Below, piece after piece: positions 31,860 through 49,572 of a DNA stretch of 64,000 nt. Made by a program: the position numbers and the translations under genes. Source of the DNA: Pseudomonadota bacterium (GTDB lineage Bacteria; Pseudomonadota; Alphaproteobacteria; Sphingomonadales; Sphingomonadaceae); the NCBI GenBank assembly GCA_049323815.1, contig JBMOOB010000020.1:20184-84183 (forward strand), written 5' to 3'. Under the pieces are notes generated by a model. It saw only the letters and a program-made list of their open reading frames with translations. It was not told where the DNA came from and did no database searches. Every line of letters begins with the position of its first letter. The first letter of the stretch is position 1.

Positions 31860-32642
<783 letters not shown>

Positions 32643-32669
32643 GCGATCCTCCGGAAGAAAGGGAAAAGC

Positions 32670-33440: not shown

Positions 33441-33616
33441 GCCGTCACGCCCCCGCCGCGCACGTCGATCAGCGCCGCGATGCGCGCGCGCAGATAGTCA
33501 TACTGGCCGGCCAGCAACTGATCGTCGGTGTCGGCGAGCCGCTCGGCCAGCGCCAGCATCTCGGCGAGCAGCCGGTCGTCCTCATGTGGTTCGGACGGCA
33601 TCCCAGTCTCTCCCAT
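33437..33616 (-). CDS. Small acidic hypothetical protein (59 aa, or 54 aa from ATG 33601)
   Basis: MGETGMPSEPHEDDRLLAEMLALAERLADTDDQLLAGQYDYLRARIAALIDVRGGGVTA. ATG overlaps the upstream TGA and its TGA overlaps the downstream GTG. High GC3 codon usage. Below the ORF-track cutoff. Confidence 0.7.
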   Translation of the reverse strand: MGETGMPSEPHEDDRLLAEMLALAERLADTDDQLLAGQYDYLRARIAALIDVRGGGVTA

Positions 33617-35016
33617 CAGAGCCGATAGCCCTGCTGGCGCTCGTCCTTCCAGCGCCGGGCCTTGTAGGCGAAGTCCTTGAATTCGGAGCGCGGCACTTCG
33701 ACCACGTCCATCCAGACGTTGGTGCGCTCCTTGATCTTCCTGCGGATCGATTCGGTCAGCCGCGCGCGCTCGTCCTCGCCCAGCGCGCCGACATGCTCGG
33801 CGACGGCGTAGCGGACCTCGATCTCGGTCCTGGCGTCGCGCGTGTAGAGGCGGCCGTCATATTCGCCGACTTCGGCGTGCGCGAAGACGGCGGCGTCGAT
33901 CATCGCGGGCCACACATTGTTGCCGCGAATCTTCATCATGTCGTCGAACCGGCCGATCGTGCCGCATTCGACCGCGTTCCACGCGCCGCCGCCGCATTCC
34001 TGCCACGGCACCAGCCGCGCGGCGTCGCCGGTGCGGAACCGGACCACCGGGCTGCCCTCGACCGACAGGTTGGTGACGATCATCTCGCCGACTTCGCCGG
34101 GCAGCGTCGGCGCGCCGGTCGCGGGGTCGACGATCTCGACCATCGATTCCCATTCGAACAGGCGGATCAGCCCGCGCCCGTCGCCGCGGAACACGCCCGC
34201 CGCCCCGGTGGAGCCGCCGAAGCCGTTGAGCTGCGTGCTGCCATAGCCTTCCTGCAACCGGCAGCCCCAATGTTCCTCGATCTTCGCCGCCCATTCGAGC
34301 GGATAGCCCTCCGCCGCAATGAACAGGCCGTGCATGTCGGGAAATGCCTCGCGCGGGGAAATGCCGCGCGCCAGCAGCGCCTCGGTCAGCGTGTGGAGAT
34401 AGTTGGTCGAGGCATAGATGAACTGCATGCCGCCGATCTTGGTCAGCAGGTCGATCTTCGCCTCGGTCGACAAATTGCCGCCCAGGTGGAAACCGGTGGC
34501 GCCCATGATGCGGATCGCCTCGCCGGGTCCCCAGCCGCCCGTCGTCATCCCCCCGGCGGGGACACAGTTGATCGCCGTGTCGCCCTTGCGCAGCCCCGCC
34601 ATGTACCAGGGCAGCGCGTGGAGATAGCCGAGCATGTGCACGTCGCGCTGAGTGCGGCCATAGATTTCCTGACCCTGCCCCGACGTGCCGCTGGTCATGC
34701 TGATGTGCACCACCTGCTCGCGATCGACGCCCAGCCGCGTACCGAACGGCGGGTTTTCCGCCTGATCGGCCAGGAACGCCTTCTTGTCGCTGGTCGGCAT
34801 CGCCTTGATGAACTGGTCGAGGCTCGTCACCTTGCCGTCGGCAAGGCCGCCCTCCGCCATCCGCGCGCGATAGAAGCTGCTCTTGGCCCACAGCCGCTCG
34901 CACAATGCCTGCACGCGCGTAAGCTGATAGGCCTCCAGCTCGTCGCGCGTCATGTCGTGGAAGCGCCGCAGCAGCGGCGACTGGGCAAAGGGATCGGCGA
35001 CGGGCGGCGATGCCAT
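33616..35016 (-). CDS. Phenylacetate-CoA ligase (PaaK)-family adenylate-forming enzyme
   Basis: MTSGTSGQG P-loop, EGYGSTQ, VVRFRTGD, GRFDDMMKIRGNNVWP. Confidence 0.88.
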   Translation of the reverse strand: MASPPVADPFAQSPLLRRFHDMTRDELEAYQLTRVQALCERLWAKSSFYRARMAEGGLADGKVTSLDQFIKAMPTSDKKAFLADQAENPPFGTRLGVDREQVVHISMTSGTSGQGQEIYGRTQRDVHMLGYLHALPWYMAGLRKGDTAINCVPAGGMTTGGWGPGEAIRIMGATGFHLGGNLSTEAKIDLLTKIGGMQFIYASTNYLHTLTEALLARGISPREAFPDMHGLFIAAEGYPLEWAAKIEEHWGCRLQEGYGSTQLNGFGGSTGAAGVFRGDGRGLIRLFEWESMVEIVDPATGAPTLPGEVGEMIVTNLSVEGSPVVRFRTGDAARLVPWQECGGGAWNAVECGTIGRFDDMMKIRGNNVWPAMIDAAVFAHAEVGEYDGRLYTRDARTEIEVRYAVAEHVGALGEDERARLTESIRRKIKERTNVWMDVVEVPRSEFKDFAYKARRWKDERQQGYRL

Positions 35017-35020
35017 GGGG

Positions 35021-35443
35021 TCAGCCCTCCATCGGCCGGAACGCAGGCAGCGTGATCTCCGGCGTCACGTCGTTGAAGACGATTTCGACCTTCATTCCCG
35101 CCGCCACGTCCTCGGGCGTGCAGCCGACGATGTTCGCCGGGATGCGGCATCCCTCGTCCAGCGTCACCAGCGCGACGACATAGGGCACCTTGTCGGCATA
35201 GACGTCGCGCGGCACCGGGTGGCGCACGGTGATCCAGCTGAATACCGTGCCCTTGCCGCTGGCCTCGACCCACTCAGGCCGGTCGAGCCCGCCGGGTGCG
35301 AAAGTGACGGGCGGGAACAGATAGTCGCCGTTGGCCGCGCGCTGCACCATCAGCCGGTGGGCGCGCATACCATCCCAGAAGGGCCTCGTCTCGGGATCGG
35401 GGACAGGCAGCGGGCCGTAATAGTCGGTTGCGGGTTCGGTCAT
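35021..35443 (-). CDS. DUF35-type (rubredoxin-like ribbon + OB-fold) protein lacking the ribbon cysteines
   Basis: PETRPFWDG..LMVQRAANGDYLFPP..ASGKGTVFSWITV..PYVVALVTLDEG..VAAGMKVEIVF. Confidence 0.85.
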   Translation of the reverse strand: MTEPATDYYGPLPVPDPETRPFWDGMRAHRLMVQRAANGDYLFPPVTFAPGGLDRPEWVEASGKGTVFSWITVRHPVPRDVYADKVPYVVALVTLDEGCRIPANIVGCTPEDVAAGMKVEIVFNDVTPEITLPAFRPMEG

Positions 35444-35446
35444 CGG

Positions 35447-36604
35447 TCAGTTCCTCAGGATCATGGCGCTGCCGCAGGTCATCGCGCCCGCGGTGGTGAG
35501 GCAGATTTCCGCTCCGTCGATCTGGCGCTCGCCGGCATCGCCGCGCAACTGCTCGACGGCTTCGAGAACGTGGTTGAAGCCGTGGATATAGGCCTCGGAC
35601 AGCAACCCCCCGGCGGTGTTGAGCGGCAGCGCGCCGTCGCGGCGGATGCGGCCGTCCATCACGAACGGCCCGCCTTCGCCTTCCTTGCAGAAGCCGAGCC
35701 CTTCCAGCGCCATCAGCACCGAATAGGTGAAACAGTCATAGATTTGCGCGACGTCGACATCCTGCGGGCCGATGCCGGCGCTGTTCCACAGATCGTCCGC
35801 CAGATATTTGAAGCAATTGTGCGCATGGCTGGGCCAGCGGATCGCGTCGAACAGGTCGTCGCCCTGGCTGGGGCCGCCCCCATAGGCGCCGCCCATGATA
35901 TAGACGGGCTTGTGCGGCAAGTCGCGGGCATGCTCCGCCGAAGTGATGACAACCGCGCAGGCGCCGTCGCTTTCCAGGCAGATGTCGTACATGCGGAACG
36001 GATCGACGATCGGGCGCGAGTTGAAATATTGCTCCTTGCTCATCGGCTCGCGCTGCATCGCGCGCGGGTTGCGCGTGGCATTGTCGCGGAAGGTGGTGGC
36101 AATCTCCGCCCAATGCTCGGGGCTGGTGCCGTACTCGATCATGTGGCGACGCGCCCACATCGCCATCGCCTGCGGATAGGTGATCCAGCCGAGCGGTGCA
36201 GTGAACTGCGTCACGCCATAGGCCGACATGTCGCGCCCGCCGCCGAGCCGGAACCCCGACCGGCCGTTCATCGCGCGAAAGCACACGACGTTCTTGGCCA
36301 ACCCCGCCTCGATCGCGGCGCAGGCGGCCAGCGTGATAAGGTTCGCGCCGTTGCCGCCCGCCGCATAGTCGACGGCATAGCCCGCGTTTTCTATCCCCAT
36401 CTCGGTCGCGACGCCGATCGCGGGGGCGCTGTCGTTGAAATTGAAGCTGACGATGCCGTCGATGTCGGACACCTTCAGCCCGGCGTCGGCGATCGCCTTC
36501 AGGCACGCCTCGGACGCCAGGCTGCGCACCGTGCGCCCCGAATTCTTGCTGTATTCGGTGTTGCCGATCCCGGCGATGGCGTATTTGTCGCGAAGCTTGA
36601 ACAT
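35447..36604 (-). CDS. Thiolase-superfamily aldolase (Ltp2/SCP2-thiolase-like)
   Basis: AIAGIGNTEYSKNSGR; GGNG where thiolases have the nucleophilic Cys; AQIYDCFT; LNTAGGLLSEAYIHG. Confidence 0.88.
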   Translation of the reverse strand: MFKLRDKYAIAGIGNTEYSKNSGRTVRSLASEACLKAIADAGLKVSDIDGIVSFNFNDSAPAIGVATEMGIENAGYAVDYAAGGNGANLITLAACAAIEAGLAKNVVCFRAMNGRSGFRLGGGRDMSAYGVTQFTAPLGWITYPQAMAMWARRHMIEYGTSPEHWAEIATTFRDNATRNPRAMQREPMSKEQYFNSRPIVDPFRMYDICLESDGACAVVITSAEHARDLPHKPVYIMGGAYGGGPSQGDDLFDAIRWPSHAHNCFKYLADDLWNSAGIGPQDVDVAQIYDCFTYSVLMALEGLGFCKEGEGGPFVMDGRIRRDGALPLNTAGGLLSEAYIHGFNHVLEAVEQLRGDAGERQIDGAEICLTTAGAMTCGSAMILRN

Positions 36605-37404
36605 CAGTTTTCCTCTGGGCCGCCGCCGAAGCGGGGCGCGCGTTTTTCCTTGAAGGCGATCAGGCCCTCGGTGGCGTCGGGTTCGGTGGTGGCATAGGCA
36701 TGGACGAACGCGATCTCGGCGCGCAGCCCCTCGGCATAGCCGGTGTCGAGCGTCAGGTTGGCGAGCCGCTTGGCGCCGGCGAGGCCGACGGGGCTCTTCT
36801 TCGCCAGTCCGTCGATCCAGGCATCGGCGGCCGCCATCAGCGCACCATCGGGAACGACTTTGGTTACCAGCCCCCAGCGCTCGGCAGTCTCGGCGTCGAG
36901 CAGTTCGCCGGTCAGCATCAGATGCTTGGCGCGCAGCATGCCGATCGCACGCGGCAACCGCTGCGACCCGCCCGCGCCGGGCAACTGGCCGAAGTTCAGA
37001 TGGCCGTCGCCGATTTTTGCCGAAGCACCCGCGATCGCCATGTCGCACGCCAGCAGCACTTCGATGCCGCCCGCCACGCACACGCCGTTGACCGCCGCGA
37101 TCCAGATCGCGCGCGCCGCCTCTATCCCCGTCAGCATCGCGAAGAAATCGTCGAGGAACGCCTGGAACGCCGCCGGATCGCGATAGAGGCGGATATAGCC
37201 GTCCAGGTCGCCGCCGGCCGAGAAGCTGCGCCCCTCGCCCGTCAGCACGACGAAGCGGATCGCGGCATCCGCCTCGATTTCCGCCACCACTGCCTTCAGT
37301 TCCTTGACGGTCGACCAGTCGAGCGGATTGAGCTTGTCGGGCCGCGCCAGTGTGACGCGCGCGACATGCCCCGATTTCTCCAGCCGCAGGTTCTGATAGG
37401 TCAT
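36604..37404 (-). CDS. Enoyl-CoA hydratase/isomerase family protein
   Basis: FSAGGDL, AAVNGVCVAGGIE, PGAGGSQRLPR. The second catalytic Glu position reads DGH. Confidence 0.9.
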   Translation of the reverse strand: MTYQNLRLEKSGHVARVTLARPDKLNPLDWSTVKELKAVVAEIEADAAIRFVVLTGEGRSFSAGGDLDGYIRLYRDPAAFQAFLDDFFAMLTGIEAARAIWIAAVNGVCVAGGIEVLLACDMAIAGASAKIGDGHLNFGQLPGAGGSQRLPRAIGMLRAKHLMLTGELLDAETAERWGLVTKVVPDGALMAAADAWIDGLAKKSPVGLAGAKRLANLTLDTGYAEGLRAEIAFVHAYATTEPDATEGLIAFKEKRAPRFGGGPEEN

Positions 37405-39026
37405 GCCGGCACTCCCCAGCGCTTCCTGGCGTCGGCGGTCAGTTCGCCCTTGGCCACCTTGCCCCCGGACGACCGCGGCAGGTCGTCCATCAGCACCAGA
37501 TATTCAGGAAACCATTCGCGGCTGACGCCGCGATCGGTCAGGTGGCGGGTAATCTCGTCGAGCGTCGGCTGCGTATTCGGGCGCGGTGCGACGTAGATGC
37601 ACACCCGCTCGCCGAACACGGGATCGGGCGCGGGCACAGCAGCGCACAGCGCGACCGAGGGATGCGTCGCCACTTCGGCCTCGATCATCGGCGCCGACAG
37701 ATTCTTGCCGCCACGAATGATGAATTCAGACGTGCGGCCGACAACCTTCAGATAGCCGTCCGCGTCGACTTCGACGATGTCGCCCATCAGCATCCATCCA
37801 TCGTCGGTGAACAGCGCCGCGTTCGCCGCGTCATCGTCCCAATAGCCGAGGCATGCGGCCGGTCCCCGGCACGCCGGCTGGCCCCTGCCCGCCACTTCCT
37901 CCCGCGTCGCGGGATCGAACAGCCGCACCTCCATCGCCGGGATGACCTGCCCCGCCGTCGTCAGCCGGTGCTCGCGCGTGTCGGCGGCCGTGGTGCGGCT
38001 GAGCGCACCCGTCTCGTTCGAGCCGTAGAATTGCAGGACGGCGGCGCCGGTCACTTCCTCGAACTCCGCCGCGCGGCGATAGGGAACCGCCTCGCCCCCG
38101 GTGAACATGCAGCGCAGCGACGACAGGTCGCGCGGCCGTTCCGCCTGTTCGTTCAGCATCATGATGAACTGCGTGCTGACGCAGCACAGCACCGTCACGC
38201 GCTCGCGCTCGATCATGTCGAGCGCGACGCCCGCGTCGAAGCGCGGAAGCACGACTGTCGGCACGCCCAGGATCGTGGGCGAGAAATGCGCGGTCCACAG
38301 GCCGAAGCCGAACGGCATCGGCACCGCGCCCAGGAAGATCTCGTCCTCGGCGAAGCGCCCCGCCTCGGCCGCGACCTGATGAAAATAGAACCAGCGGTTC
38401 TGCGTGTGCATCACGCATTTGGGCAGGCCGGTCGTGCCCGACGTCGAGTTGATGAGGAACAGCGCGTCGGGATCGGGATCGCGCAGCGGCGGATGGTCGG
38501 GCATGGCGCCCGCGCTCCAGTTGCGCGCCTCCATCAGGTCGGGGACGGCCAGCAGGTGGCGCACCGGTGCACCAATGCGTGCCAGCGCGTCGCGCAGTTC
38601 CTCGATCGTGCGGTCGCGCATCACCGGATGCGCGATCAGCACCTCGGCGCCTGTGCGGCCGAGCAGGTGCGCGATTTCCGCCAGCCCGGCGCGCGCGCCG
38701 ATGCCGACGGCGACCAGCCGCGCGCGCTCGACACCCAGCAACGCGGCGTGGACGGCGGGACCGTCGGGCAGCAGCACCGCGACGCGCGCGCCCGGCGCCA
38801 GCTCCATCGCCGCGAGCAGCGCCGCGATACGGGTCGCCGCGCGGTCATAGGCACCCCAGCCGAAACTGCCGGCGGGCGTGATGAACGCGGGCGCGGCGGG
38901 CTTGCTCCCCGCCAGCGCGGCGACGCGCGCGGACAGCGTCGCGTCGCTCCACCAGCCGGCAGCGCGATAGCGGGCGGCCGCTTCCGGATCGGCGCGCAGG
39001 CTGCGGGCGACCTCAAGCGGGCTCAA
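37401..39026 (-). CDS. Acyl-CoA synthetase (cyclohexanecarboxylate-CoA-ligase-like); start approximate (TTG)
   Basis: RYRAAGWW, NSTSGTTGLPK, FYGSNETG, IIRGGKN, PRSSGGKVAK. Confidence 0.88.
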   Translation of the reverse strand: MSPLEVARSLRADPEAAARYRAAGWWSDATLSARVAALAGSKPAAPAFITPAGSFGWGAYDRAATRIAALLAAMELAPGARVAVLLPDGPAVHAALLGVERARLVAVGIGARAGLAEIAHLLGRTGAEVLIAHPVMRDRTIEELRDALARIGAPVRHLLAVPDLMEARNWSAGAMPDHPPLRDPDPDALFLINSTSGTTGLPKCVMHTQNRWFYFHQVAAEAGRFAEDEIFLGAVPMPFGFGLWTAHFSPTILGVPTVVLPRFDAGVALDMIERERVTVLCCVSTQFIMMLNEQAERPRDLSSLRCMFTGGEAVPYRRAAEFEEVTGAAVLQFYGSNETGALSRTTAADTREHRLTTAGQVIPAMEVRLFDPATREEVAGRGQPACRGPAACLGYWDDDAANAALFTDDGWMLMGDIVEVDADGYLKVVGRTSEFIIRGGKNLSAPMIEAEVATHPSVALCAAVPAPDPVFGERVCIYVAPRPNTQPTLDEITRHLTDRGVSREWFPEYLVLMDDLPRSSGGKVAKGELTADARKRWGVPA

Positions 39027-40065
39027 GCATCGTCTCCTCGAAATGTTGACCGAAGGTGCAGTCGGGGCCCAGCGCATGGTGCAGCACATGCTGCGCAATC
39101 GTGGCACGATGCTGCGCGGGCGTGCCCCAGGCCTGGCCGAGCGCGAGCGCGCGCTTCAGCACGAAATGCACATCGACTTCCCAGCTATATCCCATCGCGC
39201 CATGCACCTGCACGGCGGCATGGGCGGCCACGTCGGCGGCGGCGGCGGCGGCGATCTTGGCATGCGCGATGCGGACGCCGGCATGCGCATCTGCCGCCGC
39301 AAGCTGGGCGGCGGCGGCGATCACCACGGGCCGCGCGAACGCCACCCTGGTCTGCGCCGTCGCCAGATGGTGCTTCACCGCCTGGAACGATCCGATCGGC
39401 TTGCCGAACTGCTGGCGATCCCTGGTGTACGCCACCGACAGGTCGATCGCGCGCTGCGCCAACCCCAAGAGCTGCGCGGCGGCATAGAGTGCGCCGCGAT
39501 CACGCATCGCGTCGAGCATCGCGCGCCCTTCCTCGCCATCGGCGATGCGCGTGCGCGCCTCGGGCCGCCAGTCGACCGCGAACAGGCGGCGGAAGGGATC
39601 GAAGCTCTCCTCGCGGCGCAGCGTCACGGCATCGGCGGGGACCAGATGGACTTCATGCCCGTTCGCCAGGATCAGCGCGGCGGCGGTGTCGGCATCGGCG
39701 ACGAAGGGATTGACCGGATGGCCGACCGCCACCGTCTCGCCCGCCACCGCGCGCGCCAGCCAGTCGCCGGTCAGCATCGGCACCGCGACGCCGGCATGTT
39801 CGACCAGCGGCTCGGGCAGCGCCGCCGCGCCGCACGCGATCGCGACCAGCGCCATCTCGACCGGCCCCAGCCCCGCTCCGCCGGCGCTTTCGGGCGCGGC
39901 AAGGCCGGTCAGCCCCATCTCCACCAGTGCCTGCCAGCGCGCATCGTCGCGCGCCGCGCCGCTGTCGAGCAGGCGGCGCAGGTCGGCGCCGGTGCAGATC
40001 TCGCCCAACAGGCCGGCCACGGTTTCGGCCAGCATTTCCTGTTCCTCGCCAAGGCGGAATTCCAT
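39013..40065 (-). CDS. Acyl-CoA dehydrogenase, short subunit (FadE32/ScdM-like)
   Basis: MEFRLGEEQ.., about 350 aa, IGSFQAVKHHLA, VQVHGAMGYSWE; lacks the C-terminal Glu motif, as in alpha2beta2 ACAD partner subunits. Confidence 0.82.
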   Translation of the reverse strand: MEFRLGEEQEMLAETVAGLLGEICTGADLRRLLDSGAARDDARWQALVEMGLTGLAAPESAGGAGLGPVEMALVAIACGAAALPEPLVEHAGVAVPMLTGDWLARAVAGETVAVGHPVNPFVADADTAAALILANGHEVHLVPADAVTLRREESFDPFRRLFAVDWRPEARTRIADGEEGRAMLDAMRDRGALYAAAQLLGLAQRAIDLSVAYTRDRQQFGKPIGSFQAVKHHLATAQTRVAFARPVVIAAAAQLAAADAHAGVRIAHAKIAAAAAADVAAHAAVQVHGAMGYSWEVDVHFVLKRALALGQAWGTPAQHRATIAQHVLHHALGPDCTFGQHFEETMLEPA

Positions 40066-40069
40066 GCCG

Positions 40070-41233
40070 CTATCCCCTCGGCAGGCCGAGCATCCGCTCA
40101 GCGATGATGTTGCGCTGAATCTCGTTCGCGCCGGCGTAGATCGGCCCCGCGAGCGAGAAGACATAGCCGTCGAGCCAATGGTCGACCGCGCCCGACGCAT
40201 CGGGCGCCGCCGCCGTCAGTTCGGCCACCGCACCCAGCAGCGACAGTGCGGTGCGGTGCAGCGCCAGGTCCATTTCCGACCAGAAGATCTTGTTGGTGCT
40301 GGTTTCCGGCCCGATCGCGCCGCCCGCCATCAACCGGCTGGCAGTCGAATAGATCGACAGCGCATAGGCATCGGCGTCCATCCACGCCTGCAGCACCGCC
40401 GCGCCCAGCGCGGGGTCGGCATCGGCGCCGCGCGCGCGCCACAGATCGACTAGCTTCGCCGCCGCGACCTGGAACCGCGCGGGGCTGCGCAGCATCAGCC
40501 CGCGTTCGAACCCGGCGGTCGACATGCACACCGCCCAGCCCTCGCCTTCGCCACCCAGCCGGTTGGCGGTGGGCACGCGGACCTCATCGAGGAAAATCTC
40601 GGCGAACACCGGCTTGCCGTCCAACCGCGCGATCGGGCGGATCGTCACGCCCGGGCTGTCGAGCGGGAAGAGGATCAGCGACAGTCCCTTGTGCCGCTCG
40701 CTGCCCGGCGCGCGGAACAGCCCGAACGCCCAGTCGGCATAGACGCCGCGCGACGACCATATCTTCTGTCCCGACAGCACATAGTCGTCGCCGTCGCGCA
40801 CCGCCGTCGAGCGCACGCCCGCCAGGTCGCTGCCCGCGCCCGGCTCCGACCATGCCTGTGCCCAGATATGGTCGCCCGCCGCCATCGCGGGCAGGAAGCG
40901 CGCCTTCTGCTCCTCGGTCCCATATTCGATCAGCGTGGGGCCGAGCAGGAAGATGCCGTTCTGGTTGACGCGCAACGGCGCGCCCGCGCGATAATATTCT
41001 TCCTCGAAGATCAGCCAGCGGATCAGGTCGAGCGCGCGGCCGCCATAATCGACGGGCCAGGTCACCATGCCCCAGTTGCCCGAATGAAGCGTGCGTTCCC
41101 ATGCGCGATGCGCCTCGAACCCCTCGCGGCTCGAATCGAAATCGGGCAGCGGCCCCGCGGGCACATGTTCGGCCAGCCATTGGCGGATTTCGGCGCGGAA
41201 CGCCCGTTCGGCGGGGCTGTAGCGAAGGTCCAT
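40070..41233 (-). CDS. Acyl-CoA dehydrogenase (FadE31/ScdM-like)
   Basis: LIFEEEYYRAGAP, IWAQAWSEPGAGSDLA, GQKIWSSR, IYAGANEIQRNIIAERMLGLPR; resembles recalled mycobacterial FadE31. Confidence 0.85.
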   Translation of the reverse strand: MDLRYSPAERAFRAEIRQWLAEHVPAGPLPDFDSSREGFEAHRAWERTLHSGNWGMVTWPVDYGGRALDLIRWLIFEEEYYRAGAPLRVNQNGIFLLGPTLIEYGTEEQKARFLPAMAAGDHIWAQAWSEPGAGSDLAGVRSTAVRDGDDYVLSGQKIWSSRGVYADWAFGLFRAPGSERHKGLSLILFPLDSPGVTIRPIARLDGKPVFAEIFLDEVRVPTANRLGGEGEGWAVCMSTAGFERGLMLRSPARFQVAAAKLVDLWRARGADADPALGAAVLQAWMDADAYALSIYSTASRLMAGGAIGPETSTNKIFWSEMDLALHRTALSLLGAVAELTAAAPDASGAVDHWLDGYVFSLAGPIYAGANEIQRNIIAERMLGLPRG

Positions 41234-41237
41234 CGCG

Positions 41238-41987
41238 TCAGAACTCCGCCCGCTCGCCCGAACCGACAAAGGCGTCGCGCGCCTTCTGGCTGTCCTCGTG
41301 CAAATACATTTCCAGCGTGAAACCCTGTTCGAAACGATAGCCATGGTCGACGTCGCGCGGTTCGATGCCGTTCAGCGCCTCCTTGGCGATGGTGAGCGCC
41401 TTGCGGCTCTTCGACGCAATGACGCCGCAGAAGGCACGCGCTTCCTCGACCAGCCGGTCGCGCGGCACGATCTTCTCGACCGCGCCCAGCCGATATGCCT
41501 CGGCCGCGTCGATGCGCCCGGCGGTGAAAAAGGTCGCGCGGACCTTCTGGATCGGGAACATGCGCATCAGATGGCTGGCGCCGCCCATCGCGCCGCGATC
41601 GACCTCGGGCAGCGAGAAGAAGGCGTCGTCGGACGCGATCACCACGTCGGACGCGCCGCAGATGCCGATGCCCGATCCGATGACGAAGCCGTGCACCGCG
41701 CTGACCACCGGCACCTCGCAGTCGCGCACTGCCTTGAACGTGCGGTAATTGCCGCGATTGAGCCAGGTGATCCGTTCCGGATGCGCCTGCATCTCCTTGA
41801 TGTCGACGCCGCCGCAAAAGCCGCGCCCCTCGCCCCGGATCAGCACGCAGCGGACCTCGGGATTGCGGCCAAGGTCCTGGATCAGGTCGGGGACCTGGTT
41901 CCACCCGTCGCTGTCGAGTGCATTGACCGGCGGGTGGTCGAACACAATCTCGCCGATGCGGTCGCGGATGTTGGTGCGCACGGGCAT
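41238..41987 (-). CDS. echA20: Crotonase-family hydrolase EchA20/ScdY-like (steroid ring D opening)
   Basis: DHPPVNAL, RGEGRGFCGGVDIKEMQ, FSLPEVDRGAMGGASHL; closely resembles recalled EchA20 and sits in the same gene context. Confidence 0.8.
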   Translation of the reverse strand: MPVRTNIRDRIGEIVFDHPPVNALDSDGWNQVPDLIQDLGRNPEVRCVLIRGEGRGFCGGVDIKEMQAHPERITWLNRGNYRTFKAVRDCEVPVVSAVHGFVIGSGIGICGASDVVIASDDAFFSLPEVDRGAMGGASHLMRMFPIQKVRATFFTAGRIDAAEAYRLGAVEKIVPRDRLVEEARAFCGVIASKSRKALTIAKEALNGIEPRDVDHGYRFEQGFTLEMYLHEDSQKARDAFVGSGERAEF

Positions 41988-43084
41988 CAGGCCAGGGTCC
42001 CGGAGTTGGCGGATGGCAGGACAGGTGCGCCGGCCAGCGCGGCGATCCGCGCGCGGGCATCGCGTTCGATGGCGCAAAGCAGCTCGGCGACGCTCGGCAG
42101 GTCGGCCAGTCGCCCGGCGACCTGGCCGGTCGCCATCAGCCCCGCATCGGCATCGCCTTCGACGACGGCGCGCTGGATGCGCATCGGCGCCGCCGCCGCG
42201 CGGATCGCCTGCGCCAGCGACAGGCCGTGCGCGTGCATGCCGCGCGCCGAATGCAGCAAATCGCTCCAGGACGCGCCGGTCCGGCGCTTCATCTCCAGCC
42301 CCGCCGCGATCGCGTCGCGCCAGCCGCCCAGCATGCCGCCGCGCTCGATCCGGCGCAGCGCCGCGTTGCGGATCATGCGCTGGGGAATACCGTCTACGTC
42401 GGTCGTCACCGCGATGTCGTCGGTCGCGGCGGCGACATAACGCTGCTTGACTGCATCGGGCACCGGGCTTTCGCGCGTCATCAGAAAGCGCGTGCCCATG
42501 GCGATGCCCGCCGCGCCGAATGCCAGCGCCGCCGCCAGCCCGCGCCCGTCGGCAAAGCCACCCGCCGCGACAACCGGCGCCGACACGGCATCGATCACTT
42601 GCGGCAACAATACGGTCGATGCGACCGCCCCGGTATGGCCACCGCCCTCGCCGCCCTGGACGACGAGCATGTCGACGCCCATCGCCACCATCTTTTGCGC
42701 ATGCTTGACCGCGCCGACCGTGGGCACGCAGGCAATCCCCGCGTCGCGGAACCGCGCGATCATCGCGGCATCGGGCCCCCGGCCGAAGCTGACCGCGCGC
42801 ACCCGGTCGCGATTGGCGAGGATCAGTTCGACCAGCTCGCCCGCGCCCGGCTGGAACATATGGAAATTGACGCCGAACGCGCCCGGGGTCCGCGTACGCA
42901 CCTCGGCGATGCGATCGGCCGCGACCCGCGGCGTCATCACCGCCGCGCCCAGGAATCCGAACCCACCCGCGTCGGTCGTCGCCGCCACCAGCGCCGGTTC
43001 CGCGACCCATCCCATCGCGGTCTGGATCACCGGCAACCGACAACCGAGCAGCGCCGTCATCGGCGTGGCAAGCGCGTCGGTCAT
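41987..43084 (-). CDS. ipdC: IpdC/ScdK-like flavoprotein (nitronate monooxygenase family)
   Basis: PVIQTAMGWVA, AFGVNFHMFQPGA, QGGEGGGHTG, AAGGFADGRGL, MGTRFL. Confidence 0.8.
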   Translation of the reverse strand: MTDALATPMTALLGCRLPVIQTAMGWVAEPALVAATTDAGGFGFLGAAVMTPRVAADRIAEVRTRTPGAFGVNFHMFQPGAGELVELILANRDRVRAVSFGRGPDAAMIARFRDAGIACVPTVGAVKHAQKMVAMGVDMLVVQGGEGGGHTGAVASTVLLPQVIDAVSAPVVAAGGFADGRGLAAALAFGAAGIAMGTRFLMTRESPVPDAVKQRYVAAATDDIAVTTDVDGIPQRMIRNAALRRIERGGMLGGWRDAIAAGLEMKRRTGASWSDLLHSARGMHAHGLSLAQAIRAAAAPMRIQRAVVEGDADAGLMATGQVAGRLADLPSVAELLCAIERDARARIAALAGAPVLPSANSGTLA

Positions 43085-43965
43085 GATTCCCCGCGCTTGT
43101 TCGCGGCGGCCGCGCTCTTGCCTGTCACCCCCGCCAACGCATGGCCGGTGGTCAGGTCGTTCTGGGCATGCGCGAAATGATGCATATGAAAGACTGCGTC
43201 CATCGCGGTCCGCTTGCCGCGCAGATCCTCGACCTGGTGGATCGCCTGCTTGGTCAGCCACATGCCCAGCGACGCCTGCGGCACCAGCTTCGCCGCCATC
43301 GCCGCCGCCTCGTCGCGCAGCGCGTCGCGCGCGACGACGCGATTGACCATGCCGAACGACGCCGCGCGGTCGGCGCTCATCCGCTCGCCCAGCAGCAGGA
43401 ATTCCTTGGCGATGCGCGGCGGCAACTCAAAGGCATGGGCGAAATATTCGACGCCGGGAATGCCCATCATCGTCGACACCGGGTCCTGGAAGAAGGCATC
43501 TTCCGACGCGACGATCAGGTCGCAGACCCAGGCGAGCATCAGTCCCCCGGCGATGCACGCGCCCTGCACCATCGCAATCGTCGGCTTGGGCAAGTCGCGC
43601 CAGCGGCGACACATGCCCAGATAGACTTCCTGCTCGCGTGTATAAAGGAATTCCGCGCCCGGCCGTCCGACATGATCGGGCAGCAGATGCGCGCGATCGA
43701 AGCTGCGCGTCACATCGCGGCCCGGCGTGCCGATGTCGTGCCCGGCGGAGAAATGCTTGCCCGCGCCGCCCAGCACCACCGCCTTCACCTCGCGATCGTC
43801 GACCGCGCGCCGGAAGGCGGCGTCGAGCGCATAGGTCATCTGGCTGTTCTGGGCATTGTGGAACTGGGGTCGGTTCATCGTCACCCAGGCGACGCCCTCC
43901 GCCACTTCATAGAGGACCGGCGTGTCGGTTTCGTACACGACTCCGGGCGCGTCGGCGTCGCTCAT
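43081..43965 (-). CDS. Enoyl-CoA hydratase EchA13/ScdN-like
   Basis: MNRPQFHNAQNSQMTYALD, KHFSAGHDIGTPGRD, YLGMCRRWRDLPKPTIA, MGIPGVEYFAH. Confidence 0.82.
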   Translation of the reverse strand: MSDADAPGVVYETDTPVLYEVAEGVAWVTMNRPQFHNAQNSQMTYALDAAFRRAVDDREVKAVVLGGAGKHFSAGHDIGTPGRDVTRSFDRAHLLPDHVGRPGAEFLYTREQEVYLGMCRRWRDLPKPTIAMVQGACIAGGLMLAWVCDLIVASEDAFFQDPVSTMMGIPGVEYFAHAFELPPRIAKEFLLLGERMSADRAASFGMVNRVVARDALRDEAAAMAAKLVPQASLGMWLTKQAIHQVEDLRGKRTAMDAVFHMHHFAHAQNDLTTGHALAGVTGKSAAAANKRGES

Positions 43966-44048
43966 CGCGCGCGCCTTTCCGCACAACCGCCGCTGTCGGA
44001 CCGTCGACCGATCACGCCCACTCTCCTGTGTCTATCTGTTCTGCAAAT

Positions 44049-44077
44049 ACTATCTTTTACAGCTTTGAGGGCGTCAA
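44049..44077 (-). promoter_or_regulatory. Candidate internal sigma70-type promoter (TTGACG-N17-GATAGT) overlapped by the dyad TTGA-N5-TCAA
   Basis: AT-rich island upstream of the echA13-like gene with canonical 17-bp spacing. Confidence 0.45.
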
Positions 44078-44188
44078 GCGCGGCGCGATCCAATCGCCAT
44101 ATGCGAGAGTTGCCGATCCGCTATCGGACGACCCGTCCGCGAGGCCCGATGGCAAGGCAAAGCCGCGAGCGAGCGAGCAGTGCCACTG

Positions 44189-44260
44189 CCGTCTTTGCGA
44201 GCGCAGCGAAGCAATCCATGGACGCGGCACTGGATTGCTTCGCTGCGCTCGCAAGGACGG
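44189..44260. repeat. Palindromic repeat family A, copy 3 (most intact)
   Basis: CCGTCTTTGCGAGCGCAGCGAAGCAATCCA-12 nt loop-TGGATTGCTTCGCTGCGCTCGCAAGGACGG; 30-bp stem with one G-U pair. Confidence 0.85.
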
Positions 44261-44287
44261 CGGAGATTGATCGAGCCCCCCGACACG

Positions 44288-45085
44288 TCACGCCGCGCGG
44301 CGGTCGCCCGGCGGATCGCCCTTCAACAGCGTCGCGCGGATATTGTGCGGATCGAACCGGCGGATCACCGCCAGCGCTTCTTCGGTCGGCGCGGGGGTAA
44401 GCGGCGGCTCGCCGTCGACCAGCACGTCGAATCCGGTGTTCTCGCGCACCTGCTCCACGCTGATGCCGGGGTGCAGCGATACCAGCCGGATCGCATGGTC
44501 CGGCCCGCCGAAGTCCATCACGCACAGGTCGGTGACGATCAGCCGCAGGTCGAGCCCCAGCGGCTTGCGCCCGCCCGGCCAGCGCGCGGGATTATATCCG
44601 GCGGAGCAGACATAATCGACTTCGCCCGCGACCAGGCTGCGCTTGCTGTGCATCGGAATGAAATAGCTGTTCGGATGATTGACGCTGTTGCCCGGAAAGC
44701 CACGCGCGCCCAGCAGCGCCGCCTTGGGCCGGTCGTGGTCGCCGATCACGCTGATGTTGGTCTGGCCGAAACGGTCGATCTGCACCGGCGACACGAACGC
44801 ATGGCGCCGCCCGCCCCACAGATTGTCGAAAGTGCGCAGATAGGGCGCCCAGCCCTCTACCACCGGCTGGAAGTCGCCGCGCGGGCCGATCGGCACCGGT
44901 TGGTCGACCAGCGCGTTCTCCGCATCGGTAATCATCAGCGCCGGATTGAACGTCGCCTTGGCCAGGCTCGCCGCGAGCCGGGGAATCGGCGTGATGCCGG
45001 TCGCCAGCCATTCGGGGTAGCCGCGCCACGCCTCGGCGCAGGCAGCGATGAGCAGTTCGGATAGCGTGTAGGACGTGGCGGTCAT
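44288..45085 (-). CDS. ipdB: CoA-transferase-fold beta subunit IpdB/ScdL2-like
   Basis: MITDAE, WGGRRH, QIDRFGQTNIS, GARGFPGNSVNHPNSY, VTDLCVMDFGGPDH; matches recalled IpdB. Confidence 0.85.
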   Translation of the reverse strand: MTATSYTLSELLIAACAEAWRGYPEWLATGITPIPRLAASLAKATFNPALMITDAENALVDQPVPIGPRGDFQPVVEGWAPYLRTFDNLWGGRRHAFVSPVQIDRFGQTNISVIGDHDRPKAALLGARGFPGNSVNHPNSYFIPMHSKRSLVAGEVDYVCSAGYNPARWPGGRKPLGLDLRLIVTDLCVMDFGGPDHAIRLVSLHPGISVEQVRENTGFDVLVDGEPPLTPAPTEEALAVIRRFDPHNIRATLLKGDPPGDRRAA

Positions 45086-45102
45086 CGCGCTTCCCCCCGG
45101 TT

Positions 45103-45978
45103 TCAATAAATCGCCGGCGGCAGCGCGCGGACCGCGTCCGCGCCGCCGACCGAGCCAAGATAGACGGCATCGTCGACATCGACATGCGCCGCGCGATAGG
45201 CGGCCCAGGCCTCCGGGCTTTCGGCGGCGGCCGCATAGGTCTTCAGATGCGTGAGATCGAGCGCATAGTCGGGCGCGGCGCTGGTCGGATGCGCGCCGAA
45301 CGGCGCCTCCGCCACGCCCGCGATCAGCGACCGCTCGACCAGGTGGAAACGCGCGTTGGCGGGCAAGTCCAGCTCGGGCGTCTTCACCAGCCTTTCGGTC
45401 GTGACGAAGGCGCGCGTCGCGGCGCGCGCCATCAACTCGTCGAAAAAGGGGTCGAGCGACAGCGTCAGCACATTGCCCTTCTCATCGGCGCGATGGACGT
45501 GGAGCAGCGCGACATCGGGCTTCAGCGCGGGCATGGCGAGCAACGTCTCGCCATCGTCGAACGGGCTGGTGATCGTGCGCAGCTCGGGCGCCTCGGCGAT
45601 GGCGGTGCCGATGCCGACGCGCGTGGGCAGGAAGGGCAGCCGCATCGCCGCCGCGCGCAGACCCCAGTGGAGCATGCCCTCGTCCATTTCCCACACCGGC
45701 AGCCCGGCCTGGCGCGCCGCCTTGAAATGCGGCTCGATCGGAATGTGGTCGAGCGAGACGAAGGCAAAGATCAGCTTTTTCAGCTTGCCCGCCGCCGCCA
45801 GCATGCCGACGTCCGGGCCGCCATAGGCGATCACCGTCAAATCCTTCAGGTTCGACCGGGCGATGGCGCGGATCAGCGCCATCGGCTTGCGCCGCGTCGC
45901 CCAGCCGCCGATGGCGATGGTCATTCCGTCGGACAACTCTCCCACGATCTCTTCGACGGTCCTGCGCTTGTCGAGCAC
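45103..45978 (-). CDS. ipdA: CoA-transferase-fold alpha subunit IpdA/ScdL1-like (steroid ring C hydrolase)
   Basis: GTG start; DKRRTVEEIVGELSDGMTIAIGGWATRRKPMALIRAI..YGGPDVG..FVSLD..EMDEGM..AMRLPFLPTRVGIG. Confidence 0.87.
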   Translation of the reverse strand: MLDKRRTVEEIVGELSDGMTIAIGGWATRRKPMALIRAIARSNLKDLTVIAYGGPDVGMLAAAGKLKKLIFAFVSLDHIPIEPHFKAARQAGLPVWEMDEGMLHWGLRAAAMRLPFLPTRVGIGTAIAEAPELRTITSPFDDGETLLAMPALKPDVALLHVHRADEKGNVLTLSLDPFFDELMARAATRAFVTTERLVKTPELDLPANARFHLVERSLIAGVAEAPFGAHPTSAAPDYALDLTHLKTYAAAAESPEAWAAYRAAHVDVDDAVYLGSVGGADAVRALPPAIY

Positions 45979-46148
45979 GGCGCGGGCATCCTTTCCAAAT
46001 GCATCCTGTCGCACGAGGGCGCGCGACAGGGCCGGCGATGGCGGCCGACCTCCCCAAGTCGCCTCCACCGCCGAACCGGTTATACAGTGCCCGGTGGCCC
46101 GCCCGCACGTGCCCCACCCGCGCGGATCAGCACCACCGCCGGTTCCGT

Positions 46149-46514
46149 TCAGGCAAGCGCGACGCGGACAATCGCCGAGGCGCAAATGTGGTCGCGATCA
46201 CGCCCGACCACCTGCACATCGACGAAGCGGCTGCCGTCCAGGTGCCGCGCATAGACGCGCCCTGTCAGTTGCATGCCGTCGCGCGCGAATGTGCCGGGCC
46301 CCAGCACGCGGCCCAAATCGGCATGCGCGCATCCGGCCCAGGCGGCCACGCCCAGCCGGGCACGCTCCGCCCAGTCGGCGCCGGCCACGGCATCCCCGTC
46401 GAATTCGACGATGTCGCCGAGCTTCACATCGGCGAACCGCCGCCGCTGCCGCATCGACCATCCCCCTAGCGGACCGGCCGGGCGGGTGCGCCGCCGGGCC
46501 TGGCCCTGCGTCAC
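46149..46514 (-). CDS. Truncated/degenerate MaoC-type hot-dog protein (ChsH1-like)
   Basis: GTG overlaps the upstream TGA (alternative ATG at 46454). RRFADVKLGD..AAWAG..LTGRV..VDVQVVGRDRDHICASAIVRV resembles the ChsH1 C-terminal half; no D-x4-H hydratase motif. Confidence 0.55.
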   Translation of the reverse strand: MTQGQARRRTRPAGPLGGWSMRQRRRFADVKLGDIVEFDGDAVAGADWAERARLGVAAWAGCAHADLGRVLGPGTFARDGMQLTGRVYARHLDGSRFVDVQVVGRDRDHICASAIVRVALA

Positions 46515-47662
46515 GCGACTTCCGCCACCGCAGGCATGGCCTCGATCGCCGGCACCGCCGCCGATTCGAAGCCATAGAGCTTCTCGGCGTTGCCATAGAG
46601 AATCGCCGCCTTCGTCTGCGCCGGAACACCCGACATCGACGACTGGATCACGCGCCATGAATAGGGATAGTCGGCGCTGATGTGCGGATAGTCGGTCGAC
46701 CACAGCACACGCTCCGGATTCATCGAATCCAGGTTGTTCAGCCCAAAGCTGTCGGTCATGTAGCCGAAGTAGAAATGCTCATCGATATATTCGCTGGGCA
46801 GACGCTTCAGGCCGAAATGGCTGACCTTTTCCAGCCGCTGATAGTTGTTGTCGATCTGCTCCTTCACATAGGGCACCCAGCCGAAGTCGACTTCGGCGAA
46901 GGCCACCTTCAGGTTCGGGTAACGATCGAACACGCCGTTGAAGATGAATTCGATGCAGCGATTGGGCGCATCAAAGAAACGGCCATATCCCGGCAGCTTC
47001 GCCTTGTGCGGCGACGGCTTGTAGATGCCCAGCGCGACATGGATGTTGAAGCTGACGTCGCGCTCATGGATCGCGGCCCACAGGTAATCCTCTTCCGGCG
47101 ACATGACCGTCGAACCGTTGGGATAGGCCTGCGCCATCGCCGCGCGCATGCCGGGGCGGCCGAGCACGCGGTCGAGCTCGGCAACCGCCGTCCTGGCGCC
47201 GCCGCGATTGGGCAGGAACACCAGGCCGCAGAAACGGCTGGGGTCATAGGCGACATATTCCGAGACCCAGTCGTTATACGCCTGGACCAGCGCGATATGA
47301 AGTTCCTCGTCCTCGATCAGCGCCATCGCGGCCTGGACTGACGGCGTCGGGTACATGACTTCGGCGGTCACGCCATCGCGGTCCTGTTCCTTGATGCGTT
47401 CGGCCGGGTCCCAGCCGCCCTTGCGCATGTCTTCGAAGCGCATCCACGCCTTCATCTCCTCCGGCGGCAGGCCGGCGCAGGCGTTCCAGCCGAAATTGCG
47501 CGGTCCATCCAACCCTTCGAAGATCCAGCCGTCGCCTTCCTCGAAACTTTCGATCCGGGGCGCTCGGTCCTTGAATTTCGCGGGGACTCGCTTGGTGAAC
47601 AGGTCGCCGGGTTCGTTGAAATGGCTGTCGGCCGAAACCAGCCGTCGGGCTCCAAGTGGCAC
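46511..47662 (-). CDS. Amidohydrolase_2 family metalloenzyme (hydrolase/decarboxylase/hydratase-type)
   Basis: VSADSHFNEP, EQDRDGVTAEVMYP, FNIHV, AEVDFGW, LWSTDYPH. Confidence 0.88.
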   Translation of the reverse strand: MPLGARRLVSADSHFNEPGDLFTKRVPAKFKDRAPRIESFEEGDGWIFEGLDGPRNFGWNACAGLPPEEMKAWMRFEDMRKGGWDPAERIKEQDRDGVTAEVMYPTPSVQAAMALIEDEELHIALVQAYNDWVSEYVAYDPSRFCGLVFLPNRGGARTAVAELDRVLGRPGMRAAMAQAYPNGSTVMSPEEDYLWAAIHERDVSFNIHVALGIYKPSPHKAKLPGYGRFFDAPNRCIEFIFNGVFDRYPNLKVAFAEVDFGWVPYVKEQIDNNYQRLEKVSHFGLKRLPSEYIDEHFYFGYMTDSFGLNNLDSMNPERVLWSTDYPHISADYPYSWRVIQSSMSGVPAQTKAAILYGNAEKLYGFESAAVPAIEAMPAVAEVA

Positions 47663-47703
47663 AGGCTCTCTCCTTGCTATCTTTTATATGATGAACGGGA
47701 TTT

Positions 47704-47717
47704 TTGACTCGAGTCAA
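47704..47717. promoter_or_regulatory. Perfect 14-bp palindrome TTGACTCGAGTCAA
   Basis: Lies in the AT-rich divergent region heading the long minus-strand operon and the nitroreductase; has FNR/FixK-box geometry (TTGAY-N4-RTCAA). Confidence 0.6.
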
Positions 47718-47838
47718 GCATCCATCGCAATTTTCCAGCACTAAACCGAGTTCGGCGCGCAACCGACCCGAGGGGCCTTTCCTCGCTTTACTAATAAAGA
47801 TAGAAAGTGCAAGAGATCCGTACTTGGGAGAGAGACAG

Positions 47839-48453
47839 ATGGCGACCCACGCCGACATCATGGAAACCATCCCCGCGGCGCCGCGTCCTGCGGCGCGCGA
47901 AGCGTTGGAAATGCTGGCCAGTCGACGTTCGCCGGCCCCCGACACGCTGGTCGCGCCAGCCCCCGGCGCCGAGGAAATCGAAACGATGCTGCGCATCGCG
48001 ACGCGGGTGCCCGACCATGGCCGCATCGCGCCATGGCGACTGATCCTGATCGCCGGAGAGGCAAAGGCCAACTGGCTCGCGAAGCTGATGGAGATCGCCG
48101 AATCGCGCGACGACGCACCCAAGGCGCGTGTCTCCGCGCGCAAGCTCGCGAGCGCGCCGCTCGTCGTGGTGCTGGTGTCGTCCCCGACGCCAGGGCACAA
48201 GATTCCCGAGTGGGAACAACAGCTATCGGCGGGCGCGGTCGGCATGAACCTGCTCCACGCCGCGCACGCGCTGGGTTATGGCGCCAACTGGCTGACCGGC
48301 TGGCACGCGTACGACCCCGCCGCGACCGCGCTGCTGGGCCTGGGCGAGCAGGAGAAGGTCGCGGCGGTGATGCCGATGGGCACAGTCGCCCAGCCGACGG
48401 CGGAACGCGAGCGCCCGGACACCGACCGTATCGCTACATGGCTGGAGCTCTGA
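47839..48453 (+). CDS. Nitroreductase family protein (YdjA-like)
   Basis: LASRRSP, RVPDHGRIAPWR, EWEQQLSAGA, GYGANWLTGW. Confidence 0.9.
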   Translation: MATHADIMETIPAAPRPAAREALEMLASRRSPAPDTLVAPAPGAEEIETMLRIATRVPDHGRIAPWRLILIAGEAKANWLAKLMEIAESRDDAPKARVSARKLASAPLVVVLVSSPTPGHKIPEWEQQLSAGAVGMNLLHAAHALGYGANWLTGWHAYDPAATALLGLGEQEKVAAVMPMGTVAQPTAERERPDTDRIATWLEL

Positions 48454-48641
48454 ACGGCGTTTCGGGCGTGGCAACGTGCCTGTCAGACATTCCGCGCTCC
48501 CGCCGCGGCAAGGACGCGCCCGAACGTCGCATCGGCGCTGCGCGGGGGAGCAGTGCGCCCCCGCGCATCCCGAATGAAAGAAGCACTCGCCTTACCCCGG
48601 TCGTCGCGCACGCCCGTCCCGCGCGGGACGACGCCCGACAG

Positions 48642-49424: not shown

Positions 49425-49572
49425 CCCCTAGGCTTCCAATCCGTCAATGCCGCCCGGAACCTGTTGCCCCGTCCGGAGGGCCGAAAGGCGCAGGACATAC
49501 GCGCGCTATCCATCATTGCAAGTCTGTGACGAATATCATCGCGCCAAATCAAAGACAAATGGGAGAGAGACG

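Follow-up and report, generated by a model that had tools for sequence, protein, structure and literature searches.

Gene content and layout of the locus

The 64,000-nucleotide stretch analyzed here (the window; positions 20,184 to 84,183 of contig JBMOOB010000020.1, assembly GCA_049323815.1, from a member of the Sphingomonadaceae) carries 16 genes on its minus strand between 30825 and 45978, in which a block of steroid ring C/D genes is followed by a set of catabolic genes of other kinds. Genes in this high-G+C window were called by third-position G+C first and by family searches second, and the entire region from 30825 to 47662 reads on the minus strand. Start and stop codons of the 16 genes overlap or almost abut throughout, and several of the junctions, with coordinates read from the sequence, are 4-nt overlaps. 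We regard this stretch as a 16-gene catabolic operon, possibly with an upstream extension to an amidohydrolase-fold gene, g02. A scan for promoters and terminators gave no more sites than were found in shuffled sequences. The genes are as follows.

45103-45978, minus strand: IpdA/ScdL1-like, ring-C hydrolase subunit (Pfam CoA_trans; solved IpdA 6co6/6con)
44288-45106, minus strand: IpdB/ScdL2-like subunit (solved relative 6co6_B)
43081-43986, minus strand: ScdN-type enoyl-CoA hydratase of the crotonase family (NCBIfam PRK08290)
41987-43087, minus strand: ScdK/IpdC-like NMO-family flavoenzyme (FabK-like, 219 bits)
41238-41987, minus strand: ScdY/EchA20-type crotonase, ring-D hydrolase type (NCBIfam PRK07938)
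40070-41230, minus strand: ScdM1-like acyl-CoA dehydrogenase (ACAD), large subunit (family searches, orthology)
39013-40065, minus strand: ScdM2-like ACAD, small subunit (IpdE2/PimD-like, below cut-offs)
37401-39026, minus strand: g10, class I adenylate-forming acyl-CoA ligase (salicylate-AMP ligase closest solved relative)
36604-37404, minus strand: g11, crotonase-type enoyl-CoA hydratase (EchA19-like, below cut-off)
35447-36607, minus strand: g12, Ltp2/Sal-type retro-aldolase (T. curvata Ltp2 6ok1)
35021-35443, minus strand: g13, stand-alone DUF35 OB-fold partner (Pfam OB_ChsH2_C only)
33616-35016, minus strand: g14, PaaK-family acyl-CoA ligase (family and solved-structure matches)
33437-33616, minus strand: 59-aa open reading frame (ORF), overlap-coupled to both neighbors
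32670-33440, minus strand: g15, short-chain dehydrogenase/reductase (SDR; family searches, synteny)
31860-32642, minus strand: g16, SDR of the PRK08213 subfamily (family searches, synteny)
30825-31829, minus strand: g17, KshA-like Rieske monooxygenase, last gene of the operon (Pfam Rieske and KshA_C)

An initial annotation of the window had proposed the seven-gene order at 39013-45978, and this order was confirmed, on the minus strand; it equals scdL1-L2-N-K-Y-M1-M2. The span given there holds for this block (module 1) and omits two SDRs and the KshA-like oxygenase at one end (to 30825), as well as a 101-aa ORF and the amidohydrolase-fold gene at the other (to 47662). The labels EchA13 and FadE31/32 used for block products are analogies only, and the matching names from Comamonas testosteroni TA441 are ScdN and ScdM1M2. 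The genes from g10 to g17 are referred to below as module 2.

Identity of the ring C/D block

Each of the seven block proteins has its true orthologue in the steroid ring C/D block (scdL1L2-N-K-Y-M1M2). The IpdA-like protein, whose GTG start codon matches the M-L/F-D-K-R start of its relatives, aligned to the solved IpdA of R. jostii and M. tuberculosis (6co6/6con) at E 1e-75, and its match to glutaconate CoA-transferase (E 7.5e-26) was far weaker than that to 6co6_A. Likewise, the IpdB-like protein matched 6co6_B at E 3.5e-49 and glutaconate CoA-transferase at 8.5e-19. A criterion that separates IpdAB from the type I transferases is Gly57 of RHA1 IpdB, which is the position of the lost transferase Glu (Crowe et al., PMC5380842). 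RHA1 D56-G57-E58 aligns with D-A-E in the window's IpdB, which has Ala at Gly57 and keeps the next Glu. From orthology, we infer that the window's IpdAB would hydrolyze a ring of the COCHEA-CoA type.

The crotonase at 43081-43986 passed NCBIfam PRK08290 (410 bits, cut-off 280), and that at 41238-41987 passed PRK07938 (338 bits, cut-off 260), a model that the canonical Caulobacter ScdY matches too. This ScdY-type crotonase is 63-85% identical to its canonical and variant orthologues. The NMO-family protein at 41987-43087 was FabK-like at 219 bits, matching what is published for IpdC. The small ACAD subunit is the most diverged product of the block, with 42-57% identity to canonical proteins compared to 65-77% for the large subunit, and it was rejected as an IpdE2 equivalog (131 bits, cut-off 450). 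No NCBIfam equivalog for IpdA, IpdB, or IpdC was matched, and since even the canonical Caulobacter IpdA matches none of them, the missing match is uninformative.

Comparison with canonical clusters

A sample of 401 Sphingomonadales genomes was searched and 31 had an IpdA homologue. Twelve loci were excised from the sample and compared gene by gene. The block order L1-L2-N-K-Y-M1-M2 is identical to that of canonical clusters, and the seven genes stand in the same order in C. testosteroni TA441 and its counterparts in Caulobacter sp. Root342, Novosphingobium sp. P6W, and Sphingobium sp. Chol11. Identity of the block proteins was 42-78% to canonical sphingomonad orthologues and 57-77% to those of Caulobacter; for IpdA, it was 55-59% in nine canonical loci and 62-65% in genome G324. 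After the seven genes, all 10 of these loci continue with a thiolase, an SDR, a second ACAD pair, another SDR, a MaoC hydratase, and a FadD3-like ligase, whereas in the window this set is absent and non-homologous or distantly related enzymes are found instead. KstD-like, DmpG/TesG, TesF, TesE, and flavin-reductase genes are nearby in the canonical loci. Caulobacter sp. Root342 and Novosphingobium sp. P6W both have the complete canonical layout, beside tesB and tesA1-tesG-type genes.

The statement in the initial annotation that the downstream genes are not a FadA6-type thiolase or FadD3 was borne out by this comparison. The extended operon is also not standard in steroid-degrading sphingomonads, since eleven canonical sphingomonad loci, along with Caulobacter sp. 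Root342 and Novosphingobium sp. P6W, have thiolase-SDR-ACAD-SDR-MaoC-ligase. A 2026 TA441 preprint names the same alphaproteobacteria as steroid-cluster carriers. The abscisic-acid degrader Novosphingobium sp. P6W was considered as a carrier of the variant operon and rejected, as its plasmid holds the canonical full steroid cluster instead.

The block was also compared to the KstR2 regulon of M. tuberculosis and R. jostii RHA1 (echA20-ipdA-ipdB-ipdC, fadE31-33, fadA6, fadD3, ipdF), for which the C/D-ring steps are described in PMC5380842. The two have in common the IpdAB fold, the lost transferase Glu, an EchA20-type crotonase, an IpdC-type NMO flavoenzyme, and heteromeric ACADs. Unlike the regulon, the window has the proteobacterial gene order, about 40-47% identity, no TetR/KstR2 regulator (a GntR regulator is nearby), no FadD3, and no FadA6.

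The seven proteins were concatenated for a maximum-likelihood tree, in which an Acidimicrobiales locus served as the outgroup; paralogous enoyl-CoA hydratase and ACAD hits of the Rhizorhabdus histidinilytica locus (L032) and of L005 were masked. The variant operon formed a monophyletic clade (support 98-100) on a short stem of about 0.07-0.13 substitutions per site. This clade was sister to the lone IpdAB of R. histidinilytica, and both nested in a group that also holds the canonical blocks from G324 and from Caulobacter, with the remaining canonical sphingomonads making up a second clade. The phylogeny called for by the initial annotation thus places the orthologues among canonical ones, yet as a distinct sub-clade. 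Clustering of this kind was among the outcomes that the annotation had named as speaking against its reading. With so short a stem, nothing suggests altered function of the block. Nesting among canonical proteins points to a ring-opening chemistry that is probably unchanged, with the novelty probably in its coupling to other genes.

Steroid genes missing from the genome

The window's genome (G000), a 3.45 Mb assembly with 99.89% completeness, contains only one IpdA homologue. It was searched with the translations of all ORFs in 140 kb surrounding the canonical cluster of G290, a closed sphingomonad genome. From the steroid island of G290 (372-440 kb), only the seven block genes have orthologues in G000. 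The other island genes had a best match of at most about 45%; the exception was an ACAD at 57%, whose match lies in another cluster of the window. For the G290 thiolase, ACAD pair, SDRs, MaoC, and ligase, only paralogues of 33-41% identity were found across the whole of G000, and the G290 tesA2-tesG stretch gave no match there at E 1e-20. Direct searches of G000 and two further sample genomes, G294 and G265, found no TesG-like or KstD-like orthologues; G324 has both genes, at 87% and 77% identity.

These searches bear on the possibility that the organism degrades steroids in the ordinary way, with the operon as the HIP stage of a complete pathway in which some enzymes have merely been replaced by non-orthologous ones. 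The position of the block proteins inside the canonical alphaproteobacterial clade fits such a pathway. However, neither KstD-like nor TesG-like orthologues occur in the three genomes searched directly, and the G290 island beyond the block is without orthologues in a nearly complete genome, which makes this explanation very improbable.

A canonical C/D cluster was also seen in G220, a genome of the same genus as the window (L014, G220:C17:151000-170900), where the block is accompanied by an SDR, an ACAD pair, another SDR, and a ligase. No TesG-like or KstD-like orthologue was found in G220, and a C/D-ring pathway without an A/B-ring pathway may be frequent.

The canonical HIP entry genes, FadD3/ScdA, ScdC1C2, the MaoC ScdD, ScdE, and ScdF, are not in the operon, and no orthologue of any of them was found in G000. 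Since these enzymes are missing from the genome, and since the canonical genes that have been replaced are precisely the entry genes, module 2 would have a role in entry. The initial annotation had proposed a new entry or exit chemistry. The coupling is indeed new, but the ring opening itself is probably not; of the two, entry is favored as the more probable.

If the chemistry were instead one of exit, module 2 would act after ring opening on the methyl-oxo-dicarboxylate left by ScdM1M2 and ScdN, with a second CoA activation at the free carboxyl followed by retro-aldol cleavage of a branched 3-hydroxyacyl-CoA. In TA441, the ring-opened methyl-oxo-dicarboxyl-CoA is the substrate of the ACAD ScdM1M2 (ORF21/22), after which the hydratase ScdN acts (bioRxiv 10.1101/2021.06.08.447645). 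ScdN of TA441 is said to act last among the enzymes encoded by the cluster, which puts the exit route outside the canonical clusters; these leave such steps to unlinked genes. Module 2 is downstream of the block in the operon, and a dicarboxylate product could account for the second ligase. However, nothing in the genome would then lead into the block, given that ScdA, C1C2, D, E, and F have no orthologues there. The substrates known for Ltp2-type aldolases and KshA-type oxygenases bear rings, and canonical degraders do without a module of this kind. We therefore consider exit chemistry unlikely.

Enzymes of module 2

The first ligase of module 2, g10, had been described as AliA-like. This description is loose, as g10 scored 200 bits on the cyclohexanecarboxylate-CoA ligase model (cut-off 792) and was rejected as AliA; the other labels given to this set (crotonase, Ltp2-like, DUF35, PaaK-like) were upheld. 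FadD3 was ruled out as well by its model score (196 bits, cut-off 657), and identity to the ligases of canonical clusters was 29-34%. The closest solved relatives of g10 are salicylate/2,3-dihydroxybenzoate-AMP ligases, which are aryl-acid adenylases. For the second ligase, g14, they are PaaK and, comparably close, 2-hydroxyisobutyryl-CoA synthetase. Those of g17 are KshA (4qdc/2zyl).

The best solved relative of g12 is T. curvata Ltp2 (6ok1, E 2e-76). According to the 2025 paper on Sal, Ltp2/Sal aldolases have a Tyr in Y-D-x-F/Y where thiolases have H-D-C-F, and the second catalytic residue is Tyr344 in Ltp2 and the motif Cys in Sal (PMC12329534). g12 reads I-Y-D-C-F, aligned to Y294-D-H-F of TcLtp2, and Y-D-C-F is the Sal/SLP form. 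g12 also has the Tyr344 equivalent (E-A-Y-I-H-G) in addition to the motif Cys. Judged from these residues, g12 unites the two catalytic sets that have been published and does not belong to the H-D-C-F proteins of the thiolase type. The region AAGGNGANL, which is at issue for the nucleophilic thiolase Cys, was read by eye only. As a substitute for the thiolase that acts after IpdAB, g12 was rejected, because that step is a 3-ketoacyl-CoA thiolysis and the residues of g12 are aldolase-type.

Module 2 thus resembles Ltp2-ChsH2(DUF35) of T. curvata and Sal-Shy of C. testosteroni in its thiolase fold, adjacent DUF35, YDxF Tyr, and Tyr344 equivalent. It differs from them in that its YDCF joins a Sal/SLP-type Cys with an Ltp2-type second Tyr, its DUF35 is free-standing and without zinc cysteines, and its partner hydratase is a crotonase and not a MaoC. 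The ibuprofen genes ipfABDEF of Sphingomonas Ibu-2 encode a CoA ligase, a ring oxygenase, and an SCPx-thiolase-like protein with DUF35 that removes the acyl-CoA side chain. Module 2 resembles ipf by scheme and differs in that ipf yields a catechol and not a ring-carboxyl-CoA for IpdAB.

Distribution of the variant operon

The window's arrangement was found gene for gene, with 60-90% identity, in all six of the close relatives examined: the sample genomes G294 and G265, Sphingomonas colocasiae, S. hengshuiensis, Sphingobium sp. CECT 9361, and Novosphingobium sp. EMRT-2, where the copy is on the 757-kb replicon pABRDHK22. Where the sequence extends that far, the synteny spans the amidohydrolase-fold gene to the Rieske oxygenase, and G265 and EMRT-2 have g17 in the corresponding position. 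At the position of the 59-aa ORF, EMRT-2 has a 53-aa hypothetical protein. IpdA of at least 76% identity was found in about 43 protein clusters, mostly metagenomic, and the named sources include Sphingomonas populi. No description of the variant operon was found in the literature that could be searched.

In addition, a Coq4-like gene, an Amidohydro_3 gene, and ribBA (50843-56187 in the window) adjoin the variant operon in G000, EMRT-2 (L034 33033-36867), and Sphingoaurantiacus (L028). A thiolase gene is next to this group in G000 and EMRT-2.

Module 2 and IpdAB in other contexts

Units related to module 2 were found without IpdAB. The Bosea sp. F3-2 plasmid pB32-2 (L035) carries an Ltp2 gene (74% identity to g12), DUF35, and a PaaK-like ligase, and nearby are a crotonase, a small ORF (66 aa, before the SDR pair), two SDRs, an APH-type kinase, and ACADs. 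Plasmids of Sphingopyxis macrogoltabida (L037) have an FCD regulator, a crotonase, Ltp2 (68%), DUF35, APH, an ACAD, a cytochrome P450, and an aldehyde dehydrogenase. On an Ilumatobacteraceae contig, a g02 homologue, a ligase, a crotonase, DUF35, and an Ltp2-like gene are close to one another. Because related crotonase/Ltp2/DUF35/PaaK/SDR-SDR units exist apart from IpdAB, the operon is best read as a mosaic of two pre-existing modules, the steroid-derived ring-opening block and a separately circulating ligase/hydratase/aldolase unit. The window itself has an APH-ACAD unit at 19912-26619, and since the Bosea and Sphingopyxis Ltp2-DUF35 pairs sit with APH and ACAD genes, the two parts of the window may cooperate.

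IpdAB also occurs in a third context. In R. histidinilytica (L032, WMBU01000015.1), IpdAB with 72-73% identity is present without the other five block genes, and its neighbors are an AMP ligase, another amidohydrolase_2 gene, two crotonases, a fused double ACAD, and an ADP-forming CoA ligase.

These separate occurrences in Bosea, Sphingopyxis, Ilumatobacteraceae, and Rhizorhabdus could mean that the operon merely places two independent modules, with different substrates, on one transcript, and that their juxtaposition has no meaning for a pathway. Yet 6/6 related genomes from four named genera keep the fusion whole, with unchanged gene order and coupled junctions, and the block would be left alone without entry enzymes in this genome. 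Independence of the two modules therefore has only a small chance of being correct.

The upstream region

Features upstream of the operon, and one further candidate gene in the window, are the following.

46149-46454, minus strand: 101-aa ORF between g02 and ipdA (no family match)
46511-47662, minus strand: g02, amidohydrolase_2-fold protein, PtmU3/DitZ-like putative two-metal oxygenase (ARO-like; Pfam PF04909)
48642-49424, minus strand: GntR/FCD regulator, candidate regulator (accompanies g02 and a dihydrodipicolinate synthase (DHDPS)-like gene across phyla)
54775-56187: thiolase gene, candidate for the product-trimming step outside the operon

The best solved relatives of g02 are PtmU3 (6omp, E 3e-34) and DitZ (8uyr, E 9e-30), both two-iron hydroxylases with the amidohydrolase fold, compared to 7e-16 for mononuclear decarboxylases that share this fold. 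The amidohydrolase-related dinuclear oxygenases (AROs) PtmU3, DitZ, SfbO, and AibH2 have an N-terminal D-x-H and a C-terminal D-x-P-H-x-[D/E] motif (PMC13154177). In g02, D12-S-H14 (the D-x-H motif), H208, E257, and D324-Y-P-H327 are invariant in 118 relatives. g02 therefore resembles PtmU3, from platensimycin biosynthesis, and DitZ, a diterpenoid hydroxylase, in its full-length alignment, D-x-H, His/Glu ligand positions, and D-Y-P-H. Unlike them, it has Ser as the last motif residue, and its family is associated with genes for a DHDPS-like protein and a GntR regulator. We regard g02 as a putative two-metal oxygenase, a prediction drawn from its sequence.

g02 is 85-89% identical among the variant loci, and its family is 60-65% identical across phyla. 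It accompanies the DHDPS-like gene (54-65%) and the GntR/FCD regulator (60-68%), often together with a nitroreductase-family gene. Homologues of the 101-aa ORF, with 38-43% identity, were found on a Caulobacter contig from a metagenome-assembled genome (L027) and beside the g02 homologue of Sphingoaurantiacus capsulatus (L028). The ORF had no NCBIfam match, and the five closest variant loci lack it, their gap measuring only 75-125 bp.

Proposed pathway

Taken together, we somewhat favor the reading that canonical ring C/D hydrolysis is fed here by a new aldolase-based entry route. The substrate would not be a whole steroid and is most likely a hydrindanone-type alicyclic acid. It could be a steroid C/D fragment from other organisms (HIP-like, perhaps with a C17 side chain) or a non-steroid bicyclic terpenoid.

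In this route, module 2 (30825-39026) would stand in place of the canonical HIP entry enzymes. One ligase would form the CoA thioester on a carboxylic side chain, which would then be desaturated and hydrated by g11, or else would receive a hydroxyl directly from the KshA-like oxygenase or the PtmU3-like g02. Next, the aldolase of Ltp2/Sal type, together with DUF35, may remove the chain as acetyl- or propionyl-CoA and leave a ring carbonyl. The two SDRs would adjust ring alcohols and ketones, and the PaaK-like ligase would activate a second carboxyl, so that a ring-carboxyl-CoA passes into module 1.

The block chemistry is taken to be canonical because of the orthology, the short stem, and the retention of all seven genes. 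The IpdC/ScdK-like flavoenzyme and an SDR would give an enoyl, oxo-substituted bicyclic carboxyl-CoA of the HIEC-CoA type. The EchA20/ScdY-type crotonase would hydrolyze the five-membered ring, and IpdAB/ScdL1L2 would hydrolyze the six-membered ring in a retro-Claisen reaction. A thiolase encoded elsewhere, for which the gene at 54775-56187 is a candidate, would trim the product, and the resulting methyl-oxo-dicarboxyl-CoA would be dehydrogenated by ScdM1M2 and hydrated by ScdN. Propionyl-CoA carboxylase and methylmalonyl-CoA mutase genes are present within the window, which fits a pathway that yields propionyl-CoA.

Several observations weigh against a dedicated entry route of this kind. The operon has no aldehyde dehydrogenase, second ACAD pair, or thiolase, and a complete scheme has to borrow enzymes. 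g13 matches the OB part of its family only (Pfam OB_ChsH2_C) and has 0/4 zinc-ribbon cysteines; the S. hengshuiensis orthologue still matches zf-ChsH2. Since units that resemble module 2 occur without IpdAB, module 2 may act on another substrate. As for g02, its C-terminal motif reads D-Y-P-H-I-S-A-D, with an invariant Ser in place of the D/E and, two residues further, an Asp that is likewise invariant in the 118 relatives. The g02/DHDPS-like/GntR unit (46511-50493 in the window) also occurs without IpdAB in Ilumatobacteraceae, Acidobacteriota, and other Alphaproteobacteria (L025, L026, L028, L030). In the window, the 101-aa ORF intervenes between g02 and ipdA. In the relatives, a GC-rich hairpin of ~40 nt that has no T-run separates the stop codon of g02 from the start codon of ipdA (about 9960-10000 in L003, with equivalents in L007 and L034); this hairpin could be a partial terminator or a processing site. 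It is possible that g02 is part of the pathway, but it may not belong to it.

A broader scenario can be put forward only tentatively. Sphingomonads that are unable to attack intact steroids may feed on hydrindane-type alicyclic acids, either C/D fragments leaked by steroid degraders or terpenoid acids of plants and microbes. An oxygenase would hydroxylate the CoA-bound substrate, the aldolase and the zinc-less DUF35 protein would cut the side chain, and the ring-hydrolase block would finish the degradation. If true, such a catabolic pathway would be new, and a PtmU3-type oxygenase would for the first time have a catabolic role alongside IpdAB.

Implications

In genomes and metagenomes, the presence of IpdAB, EchA20, and IpdC is taken to mark steroid degradation. 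The organisms described here have a fully orthologous block without the rest of the steroid pathway, and in them it is joined to a different front end. If this situation is wider, marker-based counts of "steroid degraders" would be inflated, and a class of natural substrates that feed the ring C/D hydrolases would await discovery. The cultured carriers S. hengshuiensis, S. colocasiae, and Novosphingobium sp. EMRT-2 are a defined test system for finding the substrate, and the same system could assign functions to the Ltp2/Sal hybrid aldolase and to the widespread PtmU3-like family.

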